From a virus, in the IMG/VR virus record IMGVR_UViG_3300045015_000042: a DNA stretch of 55,001 nt. The stretch is one strand, 5' to 3'. Shown here piece after piece: positions 13,598-41,734 of this stretch (the first letter of the stretch is position 1; every line of letters begins with the position of its first letter). Both the position numbers and the translations under genes were made by a program. The notes beneath the pieces are model-generated. The model had not been told where the DNA came from. It did not search any database and saw nothing but the letters and a program-made list of their open reading frames with translations.

Positions 13598-15148
13598 ATG
13601 ATGAAAAAGTTCACTTTGTTCCGCGAAGAACGAGACGCCAAGACCCCCATCTCGTCCAAAATCAAACTGCAAAAGCAAGAAGGCTCTGCGGAGTTTTCTC
13701 CTTTCCGCGTCGATAAGGCTACCCGCCCGAACCTCCGCACACTGATCCAAGCCTTCAAGGGCAGCGGTCAGGTCGGCCTCGGCTACACCACCATCGACAA
13801 GTCGAAGGGCGAACACGAACCGCTGATGAAGGCCAAGAACTTGTGGCTCACCGGCGGCGCGGTTCGCGACCACCTCAAGGGCAAAACCCCGAAGGGCTAC
13901 GACCTCGTTACGGACGCCACTCCTTCCGAAGTCCGCATGATTCTCTCCAACTCGGAACAACCGTTTACTGAGGTCAAGCCGAAAGACGGCGAGATGGGTC
14001 AGGACGAGCGGTACGCCGATCTGCCGAGCGGCAACAAGCGTCGGTGCTTCTACGCCAGCCGTTGGGACGGACAGGGCAAAGAGATCGAGATCACCGTCGA
14101 GATAAACGGCGAGAAGTTCGAGCTTGCGTCCCTCGGCAAGCACGGCAAAAGTCGCCGGGTGAACCCGGACAAAGCCGACGTTGCGACCAGCGTCGAAGAA
14201 GACAGCATGGGTCGCGACTTCACGATGAACGCCATGTATATCCCATTGAGTCAAAGTGACGGCGAGAACAGCGAATTGATTGATCCGCATGGTGGCGCAC
14301 ACCACCTGAAGGCGGGCGAGGTCAAGTTTATCAACAGTCCTATGGACAAGATGCGTGACGACCCGATGACGGCATTCCGTTACCTCAATCAAACTGGCAA
14401 GTTCGGAAAGTTTTCGGGAATCGGCGACAAGGAAAAAGCGGCGATTGGGCAGTTCAAAGACATGGCCGACGTTGACCCGTCCGAGATCCGCAAATCGTTC
14501 CTCAGCGGCCTCGAAGATCCCGACATGGACGCCAGAGGGTACATGGGCGCGGCTAAGGGTCTGGGCCTTCTGAACGTCGTGTTCCCTGATCTCGAATTCC
14601 GCGAAGACGACATGCCGCCGGACTTCCGTGGCGACCGCTGGTTGGCACCGGCTTGGGTTCTCAGGGACAACGACCCCGAAAAGGTCAAGAAGGTACTGGG
14701 CGGCGGCGGCTGGAGCAAACAAGAAGCATCGGACATCGCCTATCTGGTCAAGATCGCATCTTGGGCTGAAAAGGATGGGTTCAGTCCCGACAAGCTCAAG
14801 GACGTTAAGGGCCACACCGGGCTGACCAAGAGCAAGATCCGCGAATGGCTCCAAATGATCAACAAGGGTCAGGGCGGCGAAGCGGAAGGTCTGTTCAAGG
14901 ACGGCGAGGACGAAAACGATATGGGCGGCGAGGAAGGTCCGCAGGAGAAAAGAATGGGAGCGGCCAAGTCGCTCACCAGACCGTCTTCTGACGAAGGGGA
15001 TGCAGAGGAGAAACCGGAAAAGAAGGATGACGGCGGCGAGAAAAAGGAGTCGATGTCTTGGGGCCGTATGATGGAACGCATCAAGAACCGCCCGGCCCAA
15101 CAGGAGCGTCCGACCGAGTCGGCTGGTTGGGTTCCACTCATCCGCTGA
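13598..15148 (+). CDS. Pol-beta superfamily nucleotidyltransferase of the class II CCA-adding / poly(A)-polymerase head family (516 aa). No HD domain, and an acidic/basic low-complexity C-terminus.
   Basis: LTGGAVRDHLKGKTPKGYDLVTD (GGxVRD...D..D head motif) and RDFTMNAMY (RRDFTINA motif). AGGAG Shine-Dalgarno. Confidence 0.6.
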   Translation: MMKKFTLFREERDAKTPISSKIKLQKQEGSAEFSPFRVDKATRPNLRTLIQAFKGSGQVGLGYTTIDKSKGEHEPLMKAKNLWLTGGAVRDHLKGKTPKGYDLVTDATPSEVRMILSNSEQPFTEVKPKDGEMGQDERYADLPSGNKRRCFYASRWDGQGKEIEITVEINGEKFELASLGKHGKSRRVNPDKADVATSVEEDSMGRDFTMNAMYIPLSQSDGENSELIDPHGGAHHLKAGEVKFINSPMDKMRDDPMTAFRYLNQTGKFGKFSGIGDKEKAAIGQFKDMADVDPSEIRKSFLSGLEDPDMDARGYMGAAKGLGLLNVVFPDLEFREDDMPPDFRGDRWLAPAWVLRDNDPEKVKKVLGGGGWSKQEASDIAYLVKIASWAEKDGFSPDKLKDVKGHTGLTKSKIREWLQMINKGQGGEAEGLFKDGEDENDMGGEEGPQEKRMGAAKSLTRPSSDEGDAEEKPEKKDDGGEKKESMSWGRMMERIKNRPAQQERPTESAGWVPLIR

Positions 15149-15164
15149 TCGGTTTACAAACAGC

Positions 15165-15199
15165 GAAGCCCTCCCTATAACAAGGGAGGGCTTCTTTTT
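15165..15199 (+). terminator. Rho-independent terminator (11-bp stem GAAGCCCTCCC/GGGAGGGCTTC, loop TATAACA, then TTTTT).
   Basis: Perfect hairpin plus T-run 17 nt after the stop. Confidence 0.75.
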
Positions 15200-15216
15200 G
15201 CGCCGAGGGTAATGTC

Positions 15217-15558
15217 GTGCTGGAATACAGCGTCCAAGCCACGCCGTTCATCATCCGCGATCTGGGGTGGAAGTTCATCAAGGAACTTGCGGCTCAGGCG
15301 TACCCTCTTTTCGAGGACGGGCAGTTCCGCCGTTTGGTCTTCGGGTCGCAAGGCACACAGGTTCTCGACACCGTGGACCCCGATAAAATCAAAGTGATCT
15401 TTGCACAGATCGAAGATCGGGCGGTCATGATCGCGCCGTACCGCGACGAAGAAGGCATCAAGGTGCTTTACTTCAAATGGGTCGAAGAAACTCTCTACGA
15501 TTCATTCTGCGTACCCGATGGGCAGAACCGAGTCTGGGACAACCGAGAGAAGCCGTGA
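15217..15558 (+). CDS. Hypothetical protein (113 aa, GTG start).
   Basis: Track ORF. Confidence 0.5.
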   Translation: MLEYSVQATPFIIRDLGWKFIKELAAQAYPLFEDGQFRRLVFGSQGTQVLDTVDPDKIKVIFAQIEDRAVMIAPYRDEEGIKVLYFKWVEETLYDSFCVPDGQNRVWDNREKP

Positions 15559-15758
15559 CAGACCGCGTCGAAACCTACAAAGTTGAACACGGGTGGAACC
15601 ACCCCTACCCGTGGATGTTCCGCGTCTGGCACAACGGCGTTTGCCATCAGTTCGCGGGCATGCCCAATCAGTGTTCTACACGCAGAGAAGCTGCCGCTCG
15701 CGGGGGCTGGCGGCTCAGATGGCTCAAAACCGGCAAGTTTCAGGAGAAGTACAAGTGA
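15555..15758 (+). CDS. Small hypothetical protein (~67 aa, GTG start in a GTGA overlap with the preceding stop).
   Basis: In-frame GTG inside track ORF 15477..15758. GAGAGAAG Shine-Dalgarno. Confidence 0.4.
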   Translation: MTDRVETYKVEHGWNHPYPWMFRVWHNGVCHQFAGMPNQCSTRREAAARGGWRLRWLKTGKFQEKYK

Positions 15759-16270
15759 ATATCGACGTTTTCGATTTTGACGGGACACTCGTCAAGACGC
15801 CCGGACGCGAGCAAGCCGAGAAAGACTTCCTCGCGGCGACCGGGAACCCGTGGCCGCACATCGGTTTCTACGGCCGACTGGAATCTCTGATCCCTCCTGT
15901 CTTCCCAGAGAAGCCGGGTGACGAGTTCTTGATTCAAGAAGTCGCCGAGATCTGCCGCGCCAAAGAATGCGATCTCCGCGTGCTGATGACGGGGCGACCG
16001 TACAAACTACGCAATCGCGTCCTCGAAATCTGCACCCACTACGGCCTCGCCTTCGGCCTGACCTATTTTCAGGGCCAGAAGGACTGCCCCGGAATCAACA
16101 CTTTCGAGTGCAAAACTTCGGGGCTGCGACAACTCTTAACCCTTAATCCACAACGACTTAGGTTGTGGGAGGACCGGGAAGATCACTTCGTTCTGTTCGA
16201 GGAGTTGTTCAGGACGTTTCGCGCAGAGCGTCCAGAGGTGGAGTTCGTTCTGAACCGGGTGGTGTCGTAA
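15755..16270 (+). CDS. HAD-superfamily phosphatase (171 aa; motif I DVFDFDGTLV), comparable to the polynucleotide kinase 3'-phosphatase domain.
   Basis: DxDGT motif at residues 4-9 after a GTG start in a GTGA overlap. GGAGAA Shine-Dalgarno. Confidence 0.5.
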   Translation: MNIDVFDFDGTLVKTPGREQAEKDFLAATGNPWPHIGFYGRLESLIPPVFPEKPGDEFLIQEVAEICRAKECDLRVLMTGRPYKLRNRVLEICTHYGLAFGLTYFQGQKDCPGINTFECKTSGLRQLLTLNPQRLRLWEDREDHFVLFEELFRTFRAERPEVEFVLNRVVS

Positions 16271-16276
16271 ATAGGC

Positions 16277-16585
16277 TTGATGGCCTACACCCTCTTCTAC
16301 GACTCGATGCGTTTCTTGAAGAAGGTCGTCCGCAGCAACAAGCCGGTCAAAGTTCGACGGATGAAGCTGACGGACGACGTTGAGGGTCTTTGTATCGAGA
16401 AGTCCGATCACTTCTTGATCAAGGTTTCCAATGAATTGACCATGAGCCACGCCATCGACGTGATGATCCACGAATTTGCTCACGTCGAAGCATGGGGTAA
16501 ACAGCGGGACGCACACGGTTCGGTGTGGGGGAAGTGTTACAGCCGACTTTTTCGCGAGTATTACGACGGCTTCCTCGCCAACTGA
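16277..16585 (+). CDS. Small HExxH protein (102 aa; MIHEFAHVEAW...DAHG), a putative minimal zinc metallopeptidase.
   Basis: HEFAH motif plus a downstream His. Confidence 0.4.
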   Translation: MMAYTLFYDSMRFLKKVVRSNKPVKVRRMKLTDDVEGLCIEKSDHFLIKVSNELTMSHAIDVMIHEFAHVEAWGKQRDAHGSVWGKCYSRLFREYYDGFLAN

Positions 16586-16598
16586 CTCTCTTTAGTGC

Positions 16599-17453
16599 AT
16601 GGACTACCTAGTCGTTGCACCCAACACGCCTCACTACCAGTGGCAGATCGCCATTCTCGCGCAGAGCTTCAAACTCCACGGTCTGCAAGAGAATCTGTGC
16701 GTCATTCTCGTCGTAAACGAAGATACGCCGACGATCAACTTGTATCACAAGCACTTCGCCGATCTCCCTCGTCTGCACGCCATCAAATTGGCGACCGATC
16801 CCGACCCGGATGTTGCGAGACTCGATGCGTTGGCGTTGGCGTCTGCCCGCAGTTTGATTTCCCAGACGTTTATCAGTTTGCCGCCGCACTGCGTTTTGTG
16901 GCACCCGCCGAAGAAACTCGACGCCAACATTTCGTTCGCCTGCCGATCTGATTTCACTTTCTCCCACCTTACCAGTTATGGGATTTCGGGAGACGAGATT
17001 GCTCGTAGGTCGGGCGGGAGGAAGCAATGGTTCCCGGTCGGTGAGATCTTCGGGTTCAAAAACGTCCACACCGAGTTCTTCTACAGGGTTGTGGAGCGTG
17101 CCAGACTGATTGGATTCGATTCTTACCGGCAACTGTTGAGGGCGGGGTCAGACAAGAAGGTGAAGGGTCTTTTTAGGGCGGGCATGTCTTTGTCGTTGCT
17201 TGAACACTTCGACCGCTACAGCATCGACACTTCGATGAATCTGGAGTGTCAGATGACGGATACCAACTTCACCGCGAACTTCATCAACTACTGCTACGGT
17301 TCGCCGCCGGATTTCAACAAGATCTACTATCAACTCGACGGCAACAAGTTCGGGTTTTCGGATTCGCCGTTCGCGGCGATCATGCGGGCCGACACTTCGC
17401 CCGCGACCGACTTCATGAAGAAGGTCGTTTCGACTATGCTCCCCCGCCCATAA
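16599..17453 (+). CDS. Hypothetical protein, 284 aa.
   Basis: Track ORF. Confidence 0.55.
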   Translation: MDYLVVAPNTPHYQWQIAILAQSFKLHGLQENLCVILVVNEDTPTINLYHKHFADLPRLHAIKLATDPDPDVARLDALALASARSLISQTFISLPPHCVLWHPPKKLDANISFACRSDFTFSHLTSYGISGDEIARRSGGRKQWFPVGEIFGFKNVHTEFFYRVVERARLIGFDSYRQLLRAGSDKKVKGLFRAGMSLSLLEHFDRYSIDTSMNLECQMTDTNFTANFINYCYGSPPDFNKIYYQLDGNKFGFSDSPFAAIMRADTSPATDFMKKVVSTMLPRP

Positions 17454-17994
17454 CCTGATTCGGCTTGGCTTTACTCGCAGCTACTTCGCTCGGTGTCATC
17501 GGGTGCTTCGGGTCTACTGTCGGCGTCTTAGACGCGACCGGCGGCGTCACCTTGTTCATCTTCAACCACGGCGGGGTCAGCTTGTCGATGTTCGCCGGCA
17601 CCGCGCCCTGTTTCGCGCCCTTTTCCAATACACCGGCGACATCGACTCCTTTGCCCTTACCGATCTGGTTGGGAATTGGCTTGCCGGTCGGTGTCATGAG
17701 GCCGACAACCCTCTCCCAGTCTTTCTTGTTGATGCCCTTCGGAACGGTTTTGCCGTTGAGCATGTTCTGTTGCTTCTGGAACTCTTGGTCTGCGACCATT
17801 TTCGCTTTGTCGGGTTTGGCGTTCGGGTTGGCCTGTACGTTGGCGACGACTTTTTCGAGGTCCGCGCCGGACTGTTGGAGTTGTGCAACGAAGGCGTCTC
17901 TCGTCCCTGGATCGCTCAGGTCAATGCCCAGATCACCGACGATGGCCTCGAAGAGTTGTGGATTACGAAGTCTGACGTAGTTTGCGAACGACAT
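17434..17994 (-). CDS. Hypothetical Lys/Pro-rich protein (~187 aa).
   Basis: Second ATG of the track ORF has an AAGGAA Shine-Dalgarno. Confidence 0.5.
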   Translation of the reverse strand: MSFANYVRLRNPQLFEAIVGDLGIDLSDPGTRDAFVAQLQQSGADLEKVVANVQANPNAKPDKAKMVADQEFQKQQNMLNGKTVPKGINKKDWERVVGLMTPTGKPIPNQIGKGKGVDVAGVLEKGAKQGAVPANIDKLTPPWLKMNKVTPPVASKTPTVDPKHPMTPSEVAASKAKPNQVMGGGA

Positions 17995-18037
17995 TGTTTC
18001 CTTTGCAAATCGGTTCATCCTATCTAGTCCCCAGACC

Positions 18038-18047
18038 GGCTATACTT
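18038..18047 (+). promoter_or_regulatory. GGCTATACTT -10-like motif 18 nt upstream of ATG 18064.
   Basis: Variant of the GTCTATACTG family. Confidence 0.35.
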
Positions 18048-18063
18048 CAAAAAAGGGGATCAC

Positions 18064-18609
18064 ATGCAAGCAGCCATTTTCATTCACGGTCAAGTTCTCT
18101 GTGGACCCACTCGCGAAAGCCTCGCCGCCTGTATGACGGATGCCGACGCCGTGAGCGGTTTCTACCACCACGATCACAAACGGTTCGTATCGGAAGACCG
18201 CCAGTTCTACATGAAGGACATCGTCCTGATCCGTCACGCCGACGCCGAGGGCGACAAACTCACCGGCAAAGGCATCGCCCAGATCCAAAGTAGCCTGCCC
18301 CGACTGAATTCTTTGTACCGCAGTAATTTGGAGATAATCTCTGCCCCGTTCGAGAGATGCGAACACACGGCGTGGGCGCTCGCGACTCATTTTTCGCTTT
18401 CGGCTAAAGCGAACGACTCGATCCGCGAACCAGCTACTGACGAGAACGTGTCGGCGGCTCTGGACGAGTTGCCTGATTATGCTATGTTGATTGTTCCCGC
18501 CGATTTCCTTTGCCTCGCCGTTGGCAAAGCGACCGGGAAGTTCCCGTCCTCGGTTCCCAACATGGCCGTGATCCGCCTGTTGGCGAACGCTGCGGAAGAG
18601 ATCGCTTGA
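18064..18609 (+). CDS. Histidine-phosphatase superfamily protein (SixA-like; LIRHADAEGD...LTGKG), 181 aa.
   Basis: The RH(A/G) motif context resembles SixA and phosphoglycerate mutase branch 1. Confidence 0.4.
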   Translation: MQAAIFIHGQVLCGPTRESLAACMTDADAVSGFYHHDHKRFVSEDRQFYMKDIVLIRHADAEGDKLTGKGIAQIQSSLPRLNSLYRSNLEIISAPFERCEHTAWALATHFSLSAKANDSIREPATDENVSAALDELPDYAMLIVPADFLCLAVGKATGKFPSSVPNMAVIRLLANAAEEIA

Positions 18610-21897: not shown

Positions 21898-22176
21898 ATG
21901 ACCGCGTTCCCGTTCAAGCCAGATGCCCCCAACGTTGAAGTGATCGGCATCGGAGTGGCGCAGAAGCTCGAACCCCCGCAACTACTGGAAGAAGCCCTCA
22001 AGGTTTGCAACGAGCTACAGAGCGTCCACAAAGCTCAGAAACCGATCCTCAGACACTTCGTACACCTCGGCCATCACGATCTGGTCGGCACCGTGATCGA
22101 ACGCGCCGGGGTGTTTACCATCTTCATCGGCCTCGGCCTCGAAGTTATCTCGGCCACTCAGGGCATCCACAAGTGA
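21898..22176 (+). CDS. Hypothetical protein, 92 aa.
   Basis: Track ORF. Confidence 0.5.
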   Translation: MTAFPFKPDAPNVEVIGIGVAQKLEPPQLLEEALKVCNELQSVHKAQKPILRHFVHLGHHDLVGTVIERAGVFTIFIGLGLEVISATQGIHK

Positions 22177-22178
22177 GC

Positions 22179-23195
22179 ATGTTCAAGGTGCCGGACGGCA
22201 AGATGTTCATTCTGCCGCCGCTCGCCACACCAGCGAAGCAAGGACCGTTCTTCGTCGCCCGGAAGAACGGCTCCGCGATGTTCAACCCGACCAAGAAGAA
22301 CGTCTGTGGTTGTCCGATCTGTGAATTCGAGAAAGACCAGCGTGCCATGTCCAAGCCCACACTGACGCCTCTGGTGCTTCCTTCCGTCGCTGCCGGCAAA
22401 GGACTCGACCACCTCAACAAGAGGGGCTGCTGCAAGTATTGGCCCAACCTGACGGACGAAGCACTCGTCCGTCACGGCAACGAGTGCTTCTACTGCACCG
22501 CCAACCCCGAAGTCGGCCTCGACATCTGGCACCTCGACTACGCGACCCGTACCGTTGTGCTGAAAGAGGTCGTGGTCGTCTGCAAGTGGTGCTACCGCGC
22601 CGTCAACATCGCCGAGTCCGAAGAGAGCGATTACTTCCAAGAGGTCGTTCACCACATCGGCACCGTTCGCGGCATTAAGAAACAAGAAGTCGGGGAACTG
22701 ATTCGCGCCGCCTACGAAAACTGGGAGGTGGCGACACAAGGCCAGTGGGAACTCAGTTACGGCGACTTCGCCCACTTCATCCACGAGCCGGGGAAGCTTC
22801 CCGATGTTTCCGTCTTCGATAAGCTCCCGAAGCTCAAGGACCACGAAAGAAAGCCGTCCCAGACGAATCACGTCAAGTTTTTGCTCGTGAAACGTGACGC
22901 GAATAAAACATTGGGGAAGGGTCCGTGTCCGGTCTTCATTCTCAGCGGCAACATGCAGGAGGTCGATCAGATCTGGTCATGTGCTGCCCACATGACTAAA
23001 AACGGTCACCTCGCGGCCGAGGCGTTCGCGTCTACAATGAGAGAGTCCGAGGTCAAACCCATCTTGTCCGCAACCGGGTTTGTTGGTATTGTGCTGGACA
23101 AAACGGACTCCAAGTACGAAATCGAGAAGACGCTCCAAGTCCTGTTCGGGAGTGTCGCAAAGTCGATTCAGTTCACCGAAGGTAAAGTGAAATGA
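22179..23195 (+). CDS. Cys-rich protein (~338 aa). It has CxxC pairs and a CFYC...WHLD...CKWC...N segment with HNH-like spacing.
   Basis: ATG in frame within track ORF 22005..23195, 3 nt after the previous stop. Confidence 0.5.
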   Translation: MFKVPDGKMFILPPLATPAKQGPFFVARKNGSAMFNPTKKNVCGCPICEFEKDQRAMSKPTLTPLVLPSVAAGKGLDHLNKRGCCKYWPNLTDEALVRHGNECFYCTANPEVGLDIWHLDYATRTVVLKEVVVVCKWCYRAVNIAESEESDYFQEVVHHIGTVRGIKKQEVGELIRAAYENWEVATQGQWELSYGDFAHFIHEPGKLPDVSVFDKLPKLKDHERKPSQTNHVKFLLVKRDANKTLGKGPCPVFILSGNMQEVDQIWSCAAHMTKNGHLAAEAFASTMRESEVKPILSATGFVGIVLDKTDSKYEIEKTLQVLFGSVAKSIQFTEGKVK

Positions 23196-23722
23196 AGATC
23201 ACGAAGTTCCGCGACATCCCGCAGTTCGTGCGGCACGGCTCTTACGAGGTCGATGTCTCGCCGGAAAGCCTGATCAGCACCATCAACGACTTCGTTGAAC
23301 AAGGTCTGGATTTGGACCCCGACTTCCAGAGGGGACACGTCTGGTCCGACAAGCAGCGGGTCGCGTTCGTTGAGTTCTTCTTGCGCGGCGGCAAGACCGG
23401 CCGCGTCATTTACCTCAACAACCCGAACTGGCACTTCAACAACGAGAAGGGCTACAACGATTTCGTCATCGTTGACGGCAAGCAACGGGTCGAAGCGTTC
23501 CGCAAGTTCATCAACAATGAGATCAAGGCGTTCGGCTCCTACTACCGCGAGTACACCGACAGCATCCGCCTCGTCAACACGATGAAGATCAACGTCAACG
23601 ATCTGCGGACGCGGGCCGACGTTCTCCAGTGGTACATTGACTTCAACGCGGGCGGCGTGGTACACTCGGACAAAGAAATCAGCCGCGTTCGGCGGCTACT
23701 CAAAAAGGAAACGTCAAAATGA
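23192..23722 (+). CDS. ParB/sulfiredoxin-like DUF262-type domain protein (176 aa; DPDFQRGHVW ... VIVDGKQRVEAF, a DGQQR variant).
   Basis: Motif pair characteristic of DUF262/GmrSD N-terminal domains. Confidence 0.5.
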   Translation: MKITKFRDIPQFVRHGSYEVDVSPESLISTINDFVEQGLDLDPDFQRGHVWSDKQRVAFVEFFLRGGKTGRVIYLNNPNWHFNNEKGYNDFVIVDGKQRVEAFRKFINNEIKAFGSYYREYTDSIRLVNTMKINVNDLRTRADVLQWYIDFNAGGVVHSDKEISRVRRLLKKETSK

Positions 23723-25232: not shown

Positions 25233-25751
25233 ATGGGAACAGAGTTCGTCCCCGAAGGCTGCGACTTCCAAACGGCCGAAGCCGTCAACATCGAAAGCTG
25301 CACCCTCCTCGGCTTCAACAACTGCTTCTCGGTCAGGCTCGCGGACGGCAGCTACGCCGATGTCGTGAACTTCTACCACGAAGACATCGAAGACCTTCTC
25401 GAAAAGAAGGAAATCACTTGGCCGATCCAAGTCGCGGTCCTCGGCCCGAAGACCGTCGCTTTCAACGATCCGCGACTGCCGCACGGCAAATATCGCAAGG
25501 ATTTCTGTACGGTCTGCTGCCCGGTCGAACTCCTGCCGACTCCGCAACGCCTCCAGATCGCTCGCGAGATTCAGTGCGGGAAGACCAAGTACACCCGGCA
25601 CGAAGGCGGCATGGTAATCATCAGCCACAACCACCGTTGTGAAGGTGCGCCGAAGCTGACGAATTGGAAGGTCGAGATCAACCCGAATCCGACCGTCGTC
25701 TACTGTCTGGACGAAGCCGCCCTCAAAGCCTTTGACGGAGACAAGAAATGA
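25233..25751 (+). CDS. Hypothetical Cys-containing protein, 172 aa.
   Basis: Track ORF. Confidence 0.55.
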   Translation: MGTEFVPEGCDFQTAEAVNIESCTLLGFNNCFSVRLADGSYADVVNFYHEDIEDLLEKKEITWPIQVAVLGPKTVAFNDPRLPHGKYRKDFCTVCCPVELLPTPQRLQIAREIQCGKTKYTRHEGGMVIISHNHRCEGAPKLTNWKVEINPNPTVVYCLDEAALKAFDGDKK

Positions 25752-26935
25752 ACTGGCTCGGCTGGCTCGGTGCAATCCTCGGCGTCCTCGCGAGCGTGTG
25801 GGTGCTGTTCCGCTACGCCGGATCAATAACGATCCGTCTCGACGCCCGCACGTTCAAGACGCTGTACGAGATCTCCAAACGACCGGGCCACCGGAAGTTC
25901 ATCATCAGCGAAGAGTTCATCACCGAAGCTAAGTACCCCGTCGAGTTCCGCGCCCTCTGCTTCTTCGAGGGCTGCCCGTGGTTCTACCTCAACCACGGCG
26001 AACGGTTGCTGACGGCGGGGTGGCACGGCAAGGACAGCGTGACGCATCTGACCTGTTTACGTTGGCGTGCCGCCCGCGTCAAACAGTACCTCGACTTCAA
26101 GATCAAAGAGATCCAGATGAACAGTCTGGGCGTCCCGGCCGAAGTCATCATGCCCAACTACACGGACATGATCGGCCTCATCAAAGGGACGCCCCCGCAG
26201 CCCGCTCTGGACCCGCAACTGTGGGAAGACATCGAGAAGGATGCGGCCGAAGTGTTCTCTGGGAAGAAGCAGAAGAGTGGCGCGTTGATCTACGGCCCGC
26301 CCGGTAACAACAAGACGTTCTTCATCAAGTATCTGGCGACCAAGTACCGGGTGCCGATCAAGATTATCACGTTCACACCGGACTTCAGTAACTTCGATGT
26401 GATGGGGATTTTTAGCCAGATCAGCAGCCGGTGCATCGTACTGTTCGAGGACTTCGACAACTACTTCGACGGCCGGCGGTGCATCCTCGGAACCGAGAAC
26501 CACAGCATCAAGTTCACGTTTGATCAGATTCTCAATGGGCTGGACGGGGTCTACAATACCTACGAGAACTGTTTTTTCGTGATGACCGTTAACGACATAA
26601 CGAAAGTCGATCACGCGCTCAAAAACCGTCCGAGCCGCTTCAAGTTCGTCCGTGAGTTCAAGTGTCCCGATCTGCAAACGCGGATGAAATTGTTGCCGAA
26701 GCAATGGGCCGAGAGCAGTGAGGGGTTGAACCTCGACCAGATCTTCCGGCTCAAAGAGTTCCACGAACAAGGACTGTCTCTGGACGAAGCCAAATCGAAT
26801 CTTGGCCAAGCCGACAGGACCGCAGAAATCGCGAAGATGGCACACCAGCTTTACGAGAAGCGGGTTCGCGAAGGTCTGGCCGGGGATAACGAGGGCGACT
26901 GGTACGAAGCCAAAAGGATACTGGGTGTCACTTAA
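25748..26935 (+). CDS. Membrane-anchored AAA+ ATPase, BCS1-like (395 aa). N-terminal transmembrane helix, Walker A GPPGNNKT, Walker B IVLFEDFD, sensor-2-like ALKNRPSRF.
   Basis: Motifs read directly. ATGA overlap with the previous gene. Confidence 0.65.
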   Translation: MNWLGWLGAILGVLASVWVLFRYAGSITIRLDARTFKTLYEISKRPGHRKFIISEEFITEAKYPVEFRALCFFEGCPWFYLNHGERLLTAGWHGKDSVTHLTCLRWRAARVKQYLDFKIKEIQMNSLGVPAEVIMPNYTDMIGLIKGTPPQPALDPQLWEDIEKDAAEVFSGKKQKSGALIYGPPGNNKTFFIKYLATKYRVPIKIITFTPDFSNFDVMGIFSQISSRCIVLFEDFDNYFDGRRCILGTENHSIKFTFDQILNGLDGVYNTYENCFFVMTVNDITKVDHALKNRPSRFKFVREFKCPDLQTRMKLLPKQWAESSEGLNLDQIFRLKEFHEQGLSLDEAKSNLGQADRTAEIAKMAHQLYEKRVREGLAGDNEGDWYEAKRILGVT

Positions 26936-34811: not shown

Positions 34812-35120
34812 ATGAGCAATCAGTGGTTGGACAAGAAACTAGAAGAGAAGATCGCCACGCTGGAACTGGCACTGGAAAACGTCCGGGCGGCGTTCCTTCA
34901 AAGGACGGACGAGTACAACAAACTCAACTTAAAGCTGGCGAACGTCGAAGCCGACCTGTTCGCCGAGTACGACAAAAAGGTGGCCGACCTGAAGGTGTAC
35001 ATTGTCGGCGAAGTTGACAAGTACCTTGATCACCTGCTCAAGAAAGAGAACAAGATCCCGTCACAGATCCGTGCGACCATGACCGCAGAGGAAATCGTCG
35101 CCAAGTGCCTCGGTCACTGA
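34812..35120 (+). CDS. Coiled-coil protein, 102 aa.
   Basis: Track ORF. GGAGAAACA Shine-Dalgarno. Confidence 0.55.
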   Translation: MSNQWLDKKLEEKIATLELALENVRAAFLQRTDEYNKLNLKLANVEADLFAEYDKKVADLKVYIVGEVDKYLDHLLKKENKIPSQIRATMTAEEIVAKCLGH

Positions 35121-35893
35121 GTCGTCTTCGGAACGTATGCCGGCTGTTGTGTCTGCGGTACGTCTTCGCCCGTATACCCCGGTTGCTGGTGAACGCCTCT
35201 GTTGAGGGGAACGCTGGTCCGGGGTTTTTGACCGGACATCTTCAATTTGACGGCCTCGTACACCCTTCTCAAGAATTTGTTCCTCAACTTCGGGTCGAGC
35301 TTCATGAACCTGTCGAACCTCGGAGCCAGATCCGGGGGCAAACCCTCGCTCCTGCCCCGCGCCGCGTTCTGAAGGAACGCCTTCGCTTCCTCGGCCGTCT
35401 TCATCTTCCGCACGATCCAGTTGGTGATCATTCCGCTGAAGGCGTCGAACTCGTGCCGCAGACTGTAATAGTTCTTGTAGTCGGCATCGTTGTCGAGCTT
35501 CATGTCCGCACTACTGCCCGTCAGTTCGCCGGCCCTCGGATCGGTCGAGTGGATCAATTCGTGAACCAGAATGCTGTAGATCGCGTCGGCCGAACGCCCC
35601 TTCAACTTGAAAGCGTTCGCCACCACCTTGTTGCTACGCTCGTCGTCCCACGCCGCACCGATCCTCTGGTCGTCGTAAACTACCTCGAACGTGCGGAGAA
35701 ATCGCTGCGTCTTGCCCGTCTCGGAGTTCATCCGCTTCGACATCAACTGGCCGAGGGACACCGGCTCTCTGGTCTGGTAAACCTGCGGCACCGCGTCGGC
35801 GATCTTCTGCGCCATGTCTTGCAGCTTCGCGTCCAAGTCGTCGGTCAAAAATCGGCCGACGCTCTCCAACAACCAGCGTGTGAACTGTTTCAT
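35114..35893 (-). CDS. HExxH protein (259 aa; ILVHELIHSTD), a putative zinc metallopeptidase.
   Basis: HELIH motif. Confidence 0.45.
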   Translation of the reverse strand: MKQFTRWLLESVGRFLTDDLDAKLQDMAQKIADAVPQVYQTREPVSLGQLMSKRMNSETGKTQRFLRTFEVVYDDQRIGAAWDDERSNKVVANAFKLKGRSADAIYSILVHELIHSTDPRAGELTGSSADMKLDNDADYKNYYSLRHEFDAFSGMITNWIVRKMKTAEEAKAFLQNAARGRSEGLPPDLAPRFDRFMKLDPKLRNKFLRRVYEAVKLKMSGQKPRTSVPLNRGVHQQPGYTGEDVPQTQQPAYVPKTTQ

Positions 35894-39027: not shown

Positions 39028-40158
39028 CTAGCCGCCACGCCGCCTCGTCTTGCAAAAAGAAGCCCCCACAATCCTTACACTTGTACGTCGCCGGGTTCGT
39101 GTACACTTGTACGTCGCCGGGTTCGTGTCGCCATAATAGCTGCCGCCGTTCTCGTGCAGACACACCCGCGTCCCGTCGTCTTCCTTCGGACCAAAATCAA
39201 TGTAGTCCTTCAACTCCCGCGCCGGGGCCGGACAACCCAACGCCTTCAACGCCGACTCGATCATGTCCTTCCGGTCCAAACCGTCCACGAACTTCGCCGG
39301 AATCCCGCCCAACCCCCAATACGCCCCCGCAAACTGCCCACACACCGCACCCGTCGTATCCGCGTCCTCACCCAGATTGACGGCGCGAAGTACCGCCTCA
39401 TCGAAACTGTCCGCGTCGTGGAACGCCCACAGAGCCGCTTCCAGAGACGCCACCACCCAACCCGACCCACGAACCATGTTCGGCGTCTTGTTCCGGTAAC
39501 TCCCCTGAATCACGTTCTCGATCAACGGGTCGAATTGCTCGGACTTCCTGGCAATCTGAACCGGCTCCCACTCCGGGTCCAACACCGTTTCCCTAGACTC
39601 GCCGTTAATAAGGCCAGCCAGCACCAAGTTCATATAACGACACGCCGACCGACACTGGTCGCTCGCGTGCGTCACCTGACTGGAGTCTGAGGCTTTCTCG
39701 GTGAGAGGGCTGACGTGGCCTTCGGCTAGTAGATCGGCGGTGTGAATCGCAACGGGTGCCAATCGCATGATGCTGCCGTTGCCCGAAGATCCGGGTGCCG
39801 GGTCGCCCGACTTCCAGGGATCTCCGTCGCGCTCGAAGTTCATCAAGGCGTCACGGGTCGTACACCCGATGTCGAAACAGAACCCGTTCACGCTGTAGCG
39901 GCCGTTCTGGAACCAGTCCAAGTAACGGCTCATCTGGTCCTTCAAATCCCAACCCTTCTCGCCGATGCTGTGCGCCAACGCCAGAGCCATCGACGTGTCG
40001 TCGGTCCACTGGCCTTTGGCGAGGCTGTGCGGCCCGCCCGAACGGTAGGTGGTCACCAACGCAAACGTTCCGGGGGAACGGAACTCGACCGCAGCCCCCA
40101 GAGCGTCACCGATTGCGAGGCCGTACAGACAGCCCCGTTTCCTATCAAGATTGTTCAT
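39028..40158 (-). CDS. ADP-ribosylglycohydrolase family protein (DraG/ARH-like), 376 aa. The last 24 aa are a frameshifted tail created by the 26-bp duplication.
   Basis: Motifs GLAIGDALGAAVEF, GNGSIMRLAPV and DADTTGAVCGQFAGAYWG. Confidence 0.75.
   Translation of the reverse strand: MNNLDRKRGCLYGLAIGDALGAAVEFRSPGTFALVTTYRSGGPHSLAKGQWTDDTSMALALAHSIGEKGWDLKDQMSRYLDWFQNGRYSVNGFCFDIGCTTRDALMNFERDGDPWKSGDPAPGSSGNGSIMRLAPVAIHTADLLAEGHVSPLTEKASDSSQVTHASDQCRSACRYMNLVLAGLINGESRETVLDPEWEPVQIARKSEQFDPLIENVIQGSYRNKTPNMVRGSGWVVASLEAALWAFHDADSFDEAVLRAVNLGEDADTTGAVCGQFAGAYWGLGGIPAKFVDGLDRKDMIESALKALGCPAPARELKDYIDFGPKEDDGTRVCLHENGGSYYGDTNPATYKCTRTRRRTSVRIVGASFCKTRRRGG
39076..39127. repeat. Perfect 26-bp tandem duplication (TACACTTGTACGTCGCCGGGTTCGTG x2) at the 3' end of the ADP-ribosylglycohydrolase gene. 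Not a multiple of 3, so it is frame-shifting.
   Basis: Read directly. Removing one copy fuses the ARH ORF in-frame to 38774..39019 (…TNPATYKC-KDCGGFFLQDEAAWRLDTVMNFKEW…). Confidence 0.85.
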
Positions 40159-41023: not shown

Positions 41024-41734
41024 ATGAACGGTTTCCGAGAATTCTTCAACTACCAAGACCTGATCAGCGACCTGGGGGATGCGGGTGCGGAAGACATCGG
41101 CGGCATTCACGAGTTCCAGATCAACCCCGCCGGCCGCAAGAAAATACTAATCGTCGGCGGCGTTCACGGCGACGAGGAGTCGGGTCCGCGTGGGGTCGTG
41201 GCCTACGCACGGGGCAAGCCCGATCCCAAAAACCACCTGATCTTCATACCCTGCGCGAACGCACACGGGTTCGACAAAGGGGTTCGGACCAACGCCGACC
41301 GACGCGACATTAACCGGCACTTCCACCCCAAAAAGCAAACCAAAGAATCCGAAGCGGTCTGGAAGCGTGTTTTGAAACACGAACCCGATTTCGTCGTCAG
41401 TTTGCACGAGGTCGATTACAAAACCGCCTTCATCTACTGCCAGTCCAGCGGCAAAAAGTGTGACCTCCTGCCGCTGGCGAAAAAACTGGTCGGGGAAATA
41501 CAGAAGGAGTTCCCGGTCCACAAGGGCAAATTGAATGACGGACCCTTCAAGAACCGTTGCAGCGGGAGCAGAAACGGAGTCGTCTCCTGCAAACAGACCT
41601 CTCTCGACACGCTCGAAGATCAACTGCTCAAAGAAGGCATACCGTCGTTGACTACCGAGTTACCTTCGGGAGCAAGCCGCGCCAAGAAAATCGAAGTGAC
41701 CGTCAAAATGCTCGAAGTAATCGGGCAATGGTAA
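41024..41734 (+). CDS. M14-family zinc carboxypeptidase-like protein (236 aa; HGDEESG ... NAHGFDKGVRTNADRRDINRHF ... HEVD). Candidate peptidoglycan peptidase or lysin.
   Basis: HxxE plus NP(A)xG...DLNRNF-type motifs. Confidence 0.5.
   Translation: MNGFREFFNYQDLISDLGDAGAEDIGGIHEFQINPAGRKKILIVGGVHGDEESGPRGVVAYARGKPDPKNHLIFIPCANAHGFDKGVRTNADRRDINRHFHPKKQTKESEAVWKRVLKHEPDFVVSLHEVDYKTAFIYCQSSGKKCDLLPLAKKLVGEIQKEFPVHKGKLNDGPFKNRCSGSRNGVVSCKQTSLDTLEDQLLKEGIPSLTTELPSGASRAKKIEVTVKMLEVIGQW

Follow-up and report, generated by a model that had tools for sequence, protein, structure and literature searches.

The stretch of viral DNA analyzed here (IMG/VR record IMGVR_UViG_3300045015_000042; 55,001 nt, hereafter the window) is a piece of a huge-phage genome. 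Between positions 13,598 and 18,609 it carries a homolog of the class II nucleotidyltransferases (NTases), the group that includes CCA-adding enzymes and bacterial poly(A) polymerases (PAPs), followed by a HAD phosphatase, a SprT-like HExxH protein and a divergent histidine phosphatase (Table 1). A first-pass annotation had singled out the NTase, HAD and histidine phosphatase genes, all three of which lie where it placed them, and had viewed them as a possible toolkit for repair of tRNA 3′-ends. We find that the NTase homolog keeps the class II fold and belongs to a clade in which most of the catalytic and templating residues have been replaced, which suggests that it no longer adds CCA and may serve as a binder of tRNA or other RNA ends.

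The NTase homolog matches the PF01743 PolyA_pol head profile at 72.8 bits (cut-off 23; E 4e-20) as well as PHROG 2244, 'tRNA nucleotidyltransferase', bearing out the class II head domain previously read from the GGAVRD and RDFTMNA motifs (residues 86–91, nt 13853–13870, and residues 206–212). A Pfam scan detected no HD domain in the protein, as had also been claimed. Against the NCBIfam CCA and PcnB models the best score was 70.7 bits, with cut-offs of 290–702; an ortholog from the clade that we call C-type below scored about 120. An AlphaFold (AF2) model built from 37 homologs, with a predicted local distance difference test (pLDDT) score of 80.7, was compared by Foldseek with solved structures and aligned over about 380–430 columns with 4x4w, 8cbm, 5hc9, 3aql (top) and 3h37. 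The best E value, 2.5e-13, was to the human mitochondrial CCA enzyme, and the other matches include Thermotoga and psychrophilic CCA-adding enzymes and E. coli PAP. Because the alignment extends over this many columns with both CCA enzymes and PAP, the protein has, according to the model, the whole class II head-neck-body-tail fold. Two features set it apart from other phage CCA enzymes: 85 residues precede the GG motif, compared with 8–42, and 73 residues separate the DxD position from the third-carboxylate position, compared with 34–54. Both the N-terminal extension and this head insert of about 35 residues are conserved in the NTase family, and together they account for what had been described as a single insert of about 100 residues. 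The C-terminal 80 residues are predicted to be disordered. Database searches returned 341 homologs of the protein, on contigs of up to 670 kb, and no second, canonical NTase or cca gene is present in the 55-kb window.

The active site of the window protein departs from that of CCA enzymes at several positions. Residue correspondences were taken from HMMER alignments to solved PAP and CCA enzymes, and family columns from 122 aligned sequences. G100 aligns with the first Asp of the DxD motif (PKGYD in the window, PKDFD in E. coli PAP), and column 100 of the family contains N103 G13 D3 S2; the window protein, with G100-Y-D102, thus does not have both DxD carboxylates. The first-pass annotation had made its assignment depend on the acidic active-site residues appearing in an alignment, and the first of them is absent here and is Asn or Gly in 116/122 sequences. 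The same annotation had proposed an unusual Dx3D spacing, which corresponds to D102 and D106 of YDLVTD (residues 101–106). We rejected Dx3D as a new metal-binding spacing, since relatives with a normal DxD conserve D106 just as well; the motif is a canonical DxD in which the first Asp has become Gly. At the third-carboxylate position, column 175 is unconserved in the family (E39 N27 D11 R11), the window itself having E175, and the Arg that follows in the TFR segment (R180) is replaced by Ser or Gly across the window's clade. The first Arg of RRD has likewise been replaced (column 205: N101 G15 S3 T2), and the templating Arg of EDxxR is Thr in 109/122 sequences, including the window (DDPMT, T258). 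In canonical enzymes, R180 and R205 have a role in NTP binding. Sequencing error as the source of G100, G205 and T258 was ruled out by eight relatives at 68–88% identity, all of which have GRD at motif B; seven of these have G100 and the eighth has Asn, and T258 matches the residue of the family majority. In the E. coli CCA enzyme, mutation of DxD to AxA abolishes activity, and when EDxxR was randomized and subjected to selection in vivo, no replacement of D or R was recovered (PMC11784652); the incoming base is templated by two Arg/Asp couples (PMC8563995). Because the signature residues are lost and published mutagenesis finds DxD and the D and R of EDxxR indispensable, the window protein is unlikely to carry out canonical CCA addition.

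These substitutions are a property of a clade. We collected 80 related loci from IMG/VR, and the NTase family comprises 58 loci (L001, which is the locus of the 595-kb phage LR756511.1, and L002–L058). The NTase occupies an equivalent syntenic position in all 58, and its sequences fall into two sister clades, whose members are orthologs because they share that position. The C-type clade, which includes LR756511.1, L035, L038–41, L044, L048–51 and L053, is intact at all five signature positions (D, D, E, R, R). The N-type clade, to which the window belongs, retains zero to two of the five. A neighbor-joining tree computed without the signature columns recovered one large N-type clade as sister to C-type, with ordinary phage CCA enzymes, all canonical, as the outgroup. 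Eighteen positions discriminate the clades, mostly in the catalytic core, including D100N, K154S, G155R, V164E, R180S, R205N and R258T. Inside the N-type clade the second DxD Asp has also been lost repeatedly, giving NYN in L027, L030, L031, L043 and L052; L032 has DYN. A search of 1.84 billion cluster representatives returned 45 relatives at E≤1e-30 and 307 at E≤1e-10. Among the 54 representatives that we classified for signature residues (50%-identity clusters), 19 have the full 5/5 set and the rest are heterogeneous (e.g., NNYGV, NHKSL, NQHGS and KHNGR), with no alternative catalytic constellation conserved among them. To our knowledge, no pseudoenzyme or re-tooled member of the class II tRNA nucleotidyltransferases is known, and literature searches for one found none. 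Published work already covers phage CCA enzymes and SAK-HAD phosphatases; the eroded class II NTase clade appears to be undescribed.

Table 1. Positions of the genes, motifs and other elements in and around the NTase–HAD region of the window
Feature	Position	Strand	Remarks
Two divergently transcribed core genes, 482/491 aa and 163 aa	11116..13075	-	Upstream of NTase in every family locus
148-aa coiled-coil protein, hydrophobic C-terminal helix	13130..13576	+	Ends 21 nt before NTase, same direction
NTase homolog, 516 aa, derived N-type clade	13598..15148	+	PF01743 match, AF2/Foldseek
Motif A, GGAVRDHLKGKTPK-G100-Y-D102-LVT-D106	13853..13915	+	First catalytic Asp replaced by Gly
EKFELAS strand, third-carboxylate position E175; next TFR Arg = G180	14111..14131	+	Alignment to 6ibp GIEVTTFR
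Motif B, SMGRDFTMNA vs canonical RRDFTINA	14204..14233	+	First Arg of RRD = G205
Motif D, MRDDPMTAFRY vs canonical EDxxR	14351..14383	+	Templating Arg replaced by Thr258
Intrinsic terminator, 12-bp stem, 8 G-C pairs, T5 tail	15165..15199	+	17 nt past NTase stop codon
113-aa open reading frame (ORF), opens downstream unit	15217..15558	+	Called as gene in public assemblies
67-aa ORF	15555..15758	+	GTGA stop/start overlaps to both neighbors
HAD phosphatase, SAK_1 family	15755..16270	+	PF10307, all four HAD motifs
SprT-like HExxH protein, 101 aa	16280..16585	+	HEFAH at nt 16469-16483
284-aa protein, syntenic with HExxH gene	16599..17453	+	tblastn matches in 31/58 loci
Opposite-strand gene	17434-18018	-	ORF list
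Divergent histidine phosphatase, branch 1	18064..18609	+	IRHADAE; R57-H58, R98, E127

The fate of this protein may be viewed in two ways. The alignments show that the NTase of the window's clade has kept its fold. What it has lost (the Asp that opens DxD, the constraint on the third carboxylate, and one Arg each from TFR, RRD and EDxxR) is what canonical two-metal nucleotidyl transfer and C/A templating depend on. In the model that we favor, the protein would no longer be CCA-adding and would probably be a pseudoenzyme that binds 3′-ends of tRNA or other RNA, encoded next to an intact HAD phosphatase that shares a unit of its own with the HExxH gene. The folds, family memberships, substitutions, clades and synteny are observed, whereas the loss of CCA addition, the binding of RNA ends and the phosphatase substrates are inferred, and we hold the model with roughly even confidence. 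Several observations weigh against it. GG, R90, D91, R206, D207 and D255 are invariant in the family, which suggests that a ligand pocket is still under selection, one that may be superfluous in a pure RNA-binding scaffold. The motif-A segment is the most conserved region of the N-type proteins, with a mean column identity of 0.92 compared with 0.65 overall. The N-type clade has gained a conserved E164 (Val in C-type), on the strand beside the third-carboxylate strand, together with R155, and these two residues could rebuild a catalytic site. Ligation of Mg2+ by Asn is possible, and D102 and E175 are still present in the window protein. The highly conserved motif-A segment and the invariant residues, which belong to the NTP pocket, are also what would be expected of a re-tooled enzyme. 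Such an enzyme would have a rebuilt site composed of N/G100, D102, D106, E164 and R155, and its specificity for nucleotide or substrate would be new (e.g., addition of non-CCA tails or transfer of another group). The changes between the clades are coordinated and roughly charge balanced, with D100, E175, R180, R205, R258 and K154 lost and E164, R155 and K413 gained, and the strong conservation of N100 (or Gly) and T258 in the main clade resembles selection more than drift. We nevertheless consider a re-tooled enzyme unlikely. D102 is replaced by Asn in several N-type members and by Asn, His, Gln or Thr in remoter relatives, position 175 is variable, and the residue sets of remote relatives are so diverse that no single new catalytic arrangement is conserved. 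The loss of R180, R205 and R258, all three conserved in canonical enzymes, along with two metal ligands fits a loss of Mg-NTP binding.

The HAD phosphatase has fared differently. Previously placed two genes downstream of the NTase, it is indeed downstream, with its DFDGT motif, but is the third ORF after it, behind the 113-aa and 67-aa ORFs, and its start is likely GTG 15755 or ATG 15719, not 15593. The protein matches PF10307 HAD_SAK_1, the 'Swiss-army-knife' (SAK) family of RNA-repair HADs, at 29.5 bits (cut-off 25.6), as do 20/20 syntenic homologs (best E 1.2e-15), two of which also touch HAD_PNKP. All four motifs are present in the window, as DFDGT (nt 15773–15787), MTGR, the Lys of ECKTSG, and WEDRED, and an alignment of 20 homologs shows no variation at the motif residues D, D, T, T, K and D. 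Single-sequence searches of the PDB with the HAD and histidine phosphatase proteins returned noise only, and profiles were needed; the HAD family profile gave a weak match (E 0.02) to the phosphatase domain of Pnkp1 (4xrp). The earlier comparison with the 3′-phosphatase of T4 Pnkp is supported by membership in an RNA-repair-linked family and by the weak Pnkp1 match, but not by any P-loop polynucleotide kinase domain, none being found in the HAD protein or its neighbors. Iyer et al. 2021 (PMC7824862) describe standalone SAK-HADs as 3′-phosphatases and count them, together with CCA-adding enzymes, among the components of RNA repair in jumbo phages. The window HAD, its motifs intact, probably still removes 3′-phosphates from nucleic-acid ends. 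A relative in the 485-kb huge phage LR745208.1 (L084:9974-11482) is a 502-aa fusion of HAD_SAK_1 (E 1e-23) to a eukaryotic-type topoisomerase IB core (E 1.9e-26), which hints that the HAD family may handle 3′-phosphate ends arising from tyrosine-linked cleavage.

The HExxH protein next to the HAD carries a HEFAH motif and scores 22.1 bits against PF10263, under the cut-off of 25.6, with two longer, fused relatives above it (28.3 and 27.1). It is present in 36/58 loci, almost always adjoining the HAD. Proteases of the SprT family act in DNA-protein crosslink repair. A second, weak SprT-like or Peptidase_M90-like metallopeptidase candidate lies elsewhere in the window (35114-35893, minus strand; E 0.002–0.009).

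The histidine phosphatase, described in the first-pass annotation as SixA-like, has the expected IRHADAE motif but scores 18.2 bits against His_Phos_1, under the cut-off of 21.7. All 14 aligned members match this family (best E 2.7e-18), and the assignment of the window gene to it depends on the 13 syntenic homologs, every one of which matches. The alignment profile finds the structures of PGAM, CobC, fructose-2,6-bisphosphatase and SixA at E values of 3e-10 to 2e-5, and R57, H58, R98 and E127 are invariant. The second catalytic His, kept in all 13 homologs, is missing from the window protein, which has VPADF where they have mostly T/S-H-T/S-D-F; the sole close database relative of the window copy, P0242 (60% identity), has VSADF and likewise lacks this His. 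By its sequence, the window histidine phosphatase is a crippled remnant. All homologs also share a conserved N-terminal domain of about 55 residues (VVTG-x-NHGDAFSKL ... SGF-I/L-D; e.g., L001:11206-11370) with no family match, and in the corresponding domain of the window protein (18064-18230) the NHGDAF motif has been lost.

Whether these genes constitute one system or are simply neighbors depends on how their linkage is interpreted. The usual order in related loci is the NTase, the HAD directly after it, the HExxH gene, and then the histidine phosphatase and a ClpP-like gene. When only loci with 5 kb or more of sequence downstream are counted, the nine C-type loci contain the HAD in seven, the HExxH gene in eight and the histidine phosphatase in eight; the corresponding counts among 29 N-type loci are 13, 18 and 3. 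The difference in histidine phosphatase occurrence (8/9 vs 3/29) gives a Fisher p of 3e-5, uncorrected for shared ancestry, and the pattern fits an ancestral repair kit that decays after the NTase ceases to be a CCA enzyme. In the C-type locus of LR756511.1, a legumain/caspase-like Peptidase_C13 gene (L001:9427-10119, minus strand; E 2.3e-9) is inserted between the NTase and the HAD.

Several facts limit this evidence. The two core genes upstream of the NTase are unrelated to it and are syntenic in 58/58 loci, and because of this it appears that the whole region keeps its order. The HAD-HExxH pair is jointly displaced 8–9 kb from the NTase in L002 and L023, HAD homologs of other huge phages lie in unrelated neighborhoods, one of them in the LR745208.1 topoisomerase IB fusion, and in the window a strong terminator (15165-15199) separates the NTase from the HAD unit. 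These observations, with the link of the SprT family to DNA-protein crosslinks, are consistent with an account in which the genes are neighbors through conserved core order and the HAD and SprT-like proteins form a pair of their own, whose targets would be DNA 3′-ends or DNA-protein adducts and which would have no connection to the NTase. Such an account could stand alongside the pseudoenzyme model of the NTase, but we think it improbable. In most HAD-bearing loci, across 31–65% NTase identity, the HAD is the immediate downstream neighbor of the NTase, the histidine phosphatase tracks the canonical NTase clade, and both the Pfam family and the literature place the HAD in RNA repair.

The original proposal is a working canonical tRNA 3′-end repair kit, in which the HAD and histidine phosphatase would clear the 3′- or 2′,3′-cyclic phosphates that host nucleases leave behind, with the NTase rebuilding the CCA end. 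This would be in keeping with the class II fold and family of the NTase, the conserved gene order, the link of SAK-HADs to RNA repair and the known presence of CCA enzymes in jumbo phages (PMC7824862), and it fits the C-type sister clade well. For the window we regard it as very improbable: the NTase is without the leading Asp of DxD, the first Arg of RRD and the Arg of EDxxR that serves as template, residues that published mutagenesis finds indispensable, its NCBIfam scores lie far under the CCA and PcnB cut-offs, the histidine phosphatase is without a catalytic His and a terminator stands between the NTase and the HAD. No RNA ligase or polynucleotide kinase was found among about 40 window ORFs scanned with Pfam, as the first-pass annotation had already noted, and there are no tRNA genes in the window. 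What survives of the toolkit proposal is the fold, the SAK-HAD, the recurring NTase-HAD-HExxH-histidine phosphatase order and the C-type form; as a description of the window's own genes it very probably does not hold.

We return to the model of a pseudoenzyme. The block is a conserved genome segment of a huge-phage lineage, whose ancestral form, surviving in the C-type clade (e.g., LR756511.1), has the appearance of a kit that heals and rebuilds tRNA 3′-ends. Its parts there appear to be a class II CCA-adding enzyme of canonical type, a 3′-phosphatase of the SAK-HAD type, a small SprT-like HExxH protein and a PGAM/SixA-type histidine phosphatase. In the window's clade, the NTase would have ceased to add CCA and the intact HAD, in its separate transcription unit with the HExxH protein, would probably still act as a 3′-phosphatase on nucleic-acid ends.

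Comparison with known systems shows how far the window has diverged. The NTase homolog shares the head-neck-body-tail fold of class II CCA-adding enzymes, those of jumbo phages included, and bacterial PAP I (1MIV, 4X4W, 5HC9 and 3AQL), and the GGxVRD, RD-FT-N and ED motifs are still recognizable in it; many large phages have annotated homologs (PMC7824862, PMC7162821). It differs from class II enzymes in the replacement of the first DxD Asp, the TFR Arg, the first Arg of RRD and the EDxxR Arg, in the unconstrained third carboxylate of its clade, and in its long N-terminus, head insert of about 35 residues and disordered acidic tail. The ancestral block recalls the multifunctional CCA addition and repair protein of E. 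coli, an NTase joined to an HD phosphoesterase, in uniting CCA addition with tRNA 3′-end cleaning. The HD domain of that protein has phosphatase and phosphodiesterase activities that clean tRNA 3′-ends. The window, in contrast, has separate HAD and histidine phosphatase genes, no HD domain and an NTase without the catalytic set. With T4 Pnkp, bacterial Pnkp1 and standalone SAK-HADs, the window HAD shares DxDxT and all four motifs, PF10307 and the weak 4xrp match; it differs in having no fused or adjoining polynucleotide kinase or RNA ligase and in that one of its relatives is fused to a type IB topoisomerase core. The window histidine phosphatase has the RHG-type motif, second Arg and Glu of branch 1 (PGAM, CobC and SixA) but differs in lacking the second catalytic His, in its sub-cut-off Pfam score and, along with all members of its group, in the N-terminal domain of about 55 residues.

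The remainder of the locus provides some context. An identical NTase protein occurs on six public metagenome contigs, and an identical upstream 482-aa protein and an identical histidine phosphatase occur on contigs of up to 254 kb. LR756511.1 is the best relative in the phage collection; a nucleotide-level search of that collection returned just one 110-bp match, and a close sequenced relative is absent there. The two universally syntenic upstream genes had no match in PHROGs or Pfam. A medium-quality model of the larger one shows weak similarity to the PD-(D/E)xK nuclease fold, which is a lead only, with no evidence of a link to the NTase. The 148-aa protein before the NTase has only weak family matches (coiled-coil or XhlA-like), and homologs detected by tblastn occupy the equivalent position in 20/58 loci. 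Downstream, the 113-aa ORF is without a family match and without a homolog among related loci, and family searches with the 67-aa and 284-aa proteins found no match. Across the 113-aa, 67-aa and HAD genes (window 15552-15762), the stop codon of each of the first two overlaps the GTG start of the next in a GTGA sequence, which suggests translational coupling. Among 34 related loci there is a single tRNA gene, in L032, and no Rfam family was found in the window.

Farther from the block, the window encodes several other proteins with recognizable domains. A 679-aa protein (6938-8977, plus strand), also called as a gene in public assemblies of the same contig, matches PF11978, the shoulder domain of the Major Vault Protein, at E 6.7e-21 and, weakly, the Vault_3 repeat; the shoulder domain is unusual in a phage. 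A strong ADP-ribosylglycohydrolase match (PF03747, E 1.9e-73) lies at 39028-40158 on the minus strand, near an AstE/AspA-type deacylase domain at 41024-41734. A GmrSD_N (DUF262) domain protein (23192-23722, plus strand; E 3.4e-12) and an AAA ATPase (25748-26935, plus strand; E 8e-12) are accompanied by a weak match to an HNH endonuclease PHROG at 22005-23195. At the left end, public calls for the same contig place a giant gene of 1883 aa on the minus strand (window 1-5371), which extends past the window.

Automatic annotation labels these NTase homologs 'tRNA nucleotidyltransferase/poly(A) polymerase' (JGI names), and such genes enter surveys of huge phages as CCA-adding enzymes, where they are taken to show that the phage takes over translation. 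If it is true that the whole clade, which numbers hundreds of sequences and is found on contigs as long as 670 kb, is without catalytic and templating residues, then these counts would overstate the CCA-adding capacity of phages. More broadly, and more tentatively than for the window protein itself, the pattern of substitutions raises the possibility that huge phages hold a large radiation of dead class II CCA-enzyme homologs, in which the tRNA-gripping architecture would be kept and the polymerase chemistry gone. Such proteins may be readers or shields of tRNA 3′-ends, descended from a phage module that once repaired tRNA and whose phosphatases then decayed, a scenario we consider possible but doubtful. 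If it holds, the dead homologs might, for example, protect or sequester tRNAs from host acceptor-end nucleases or tRNA-tagging toxins, and the CCA-enzyme fold would have a new function still to be discovered. The presence of canonical and eroded orthologs at one genomic position constitutes a natural experiment.

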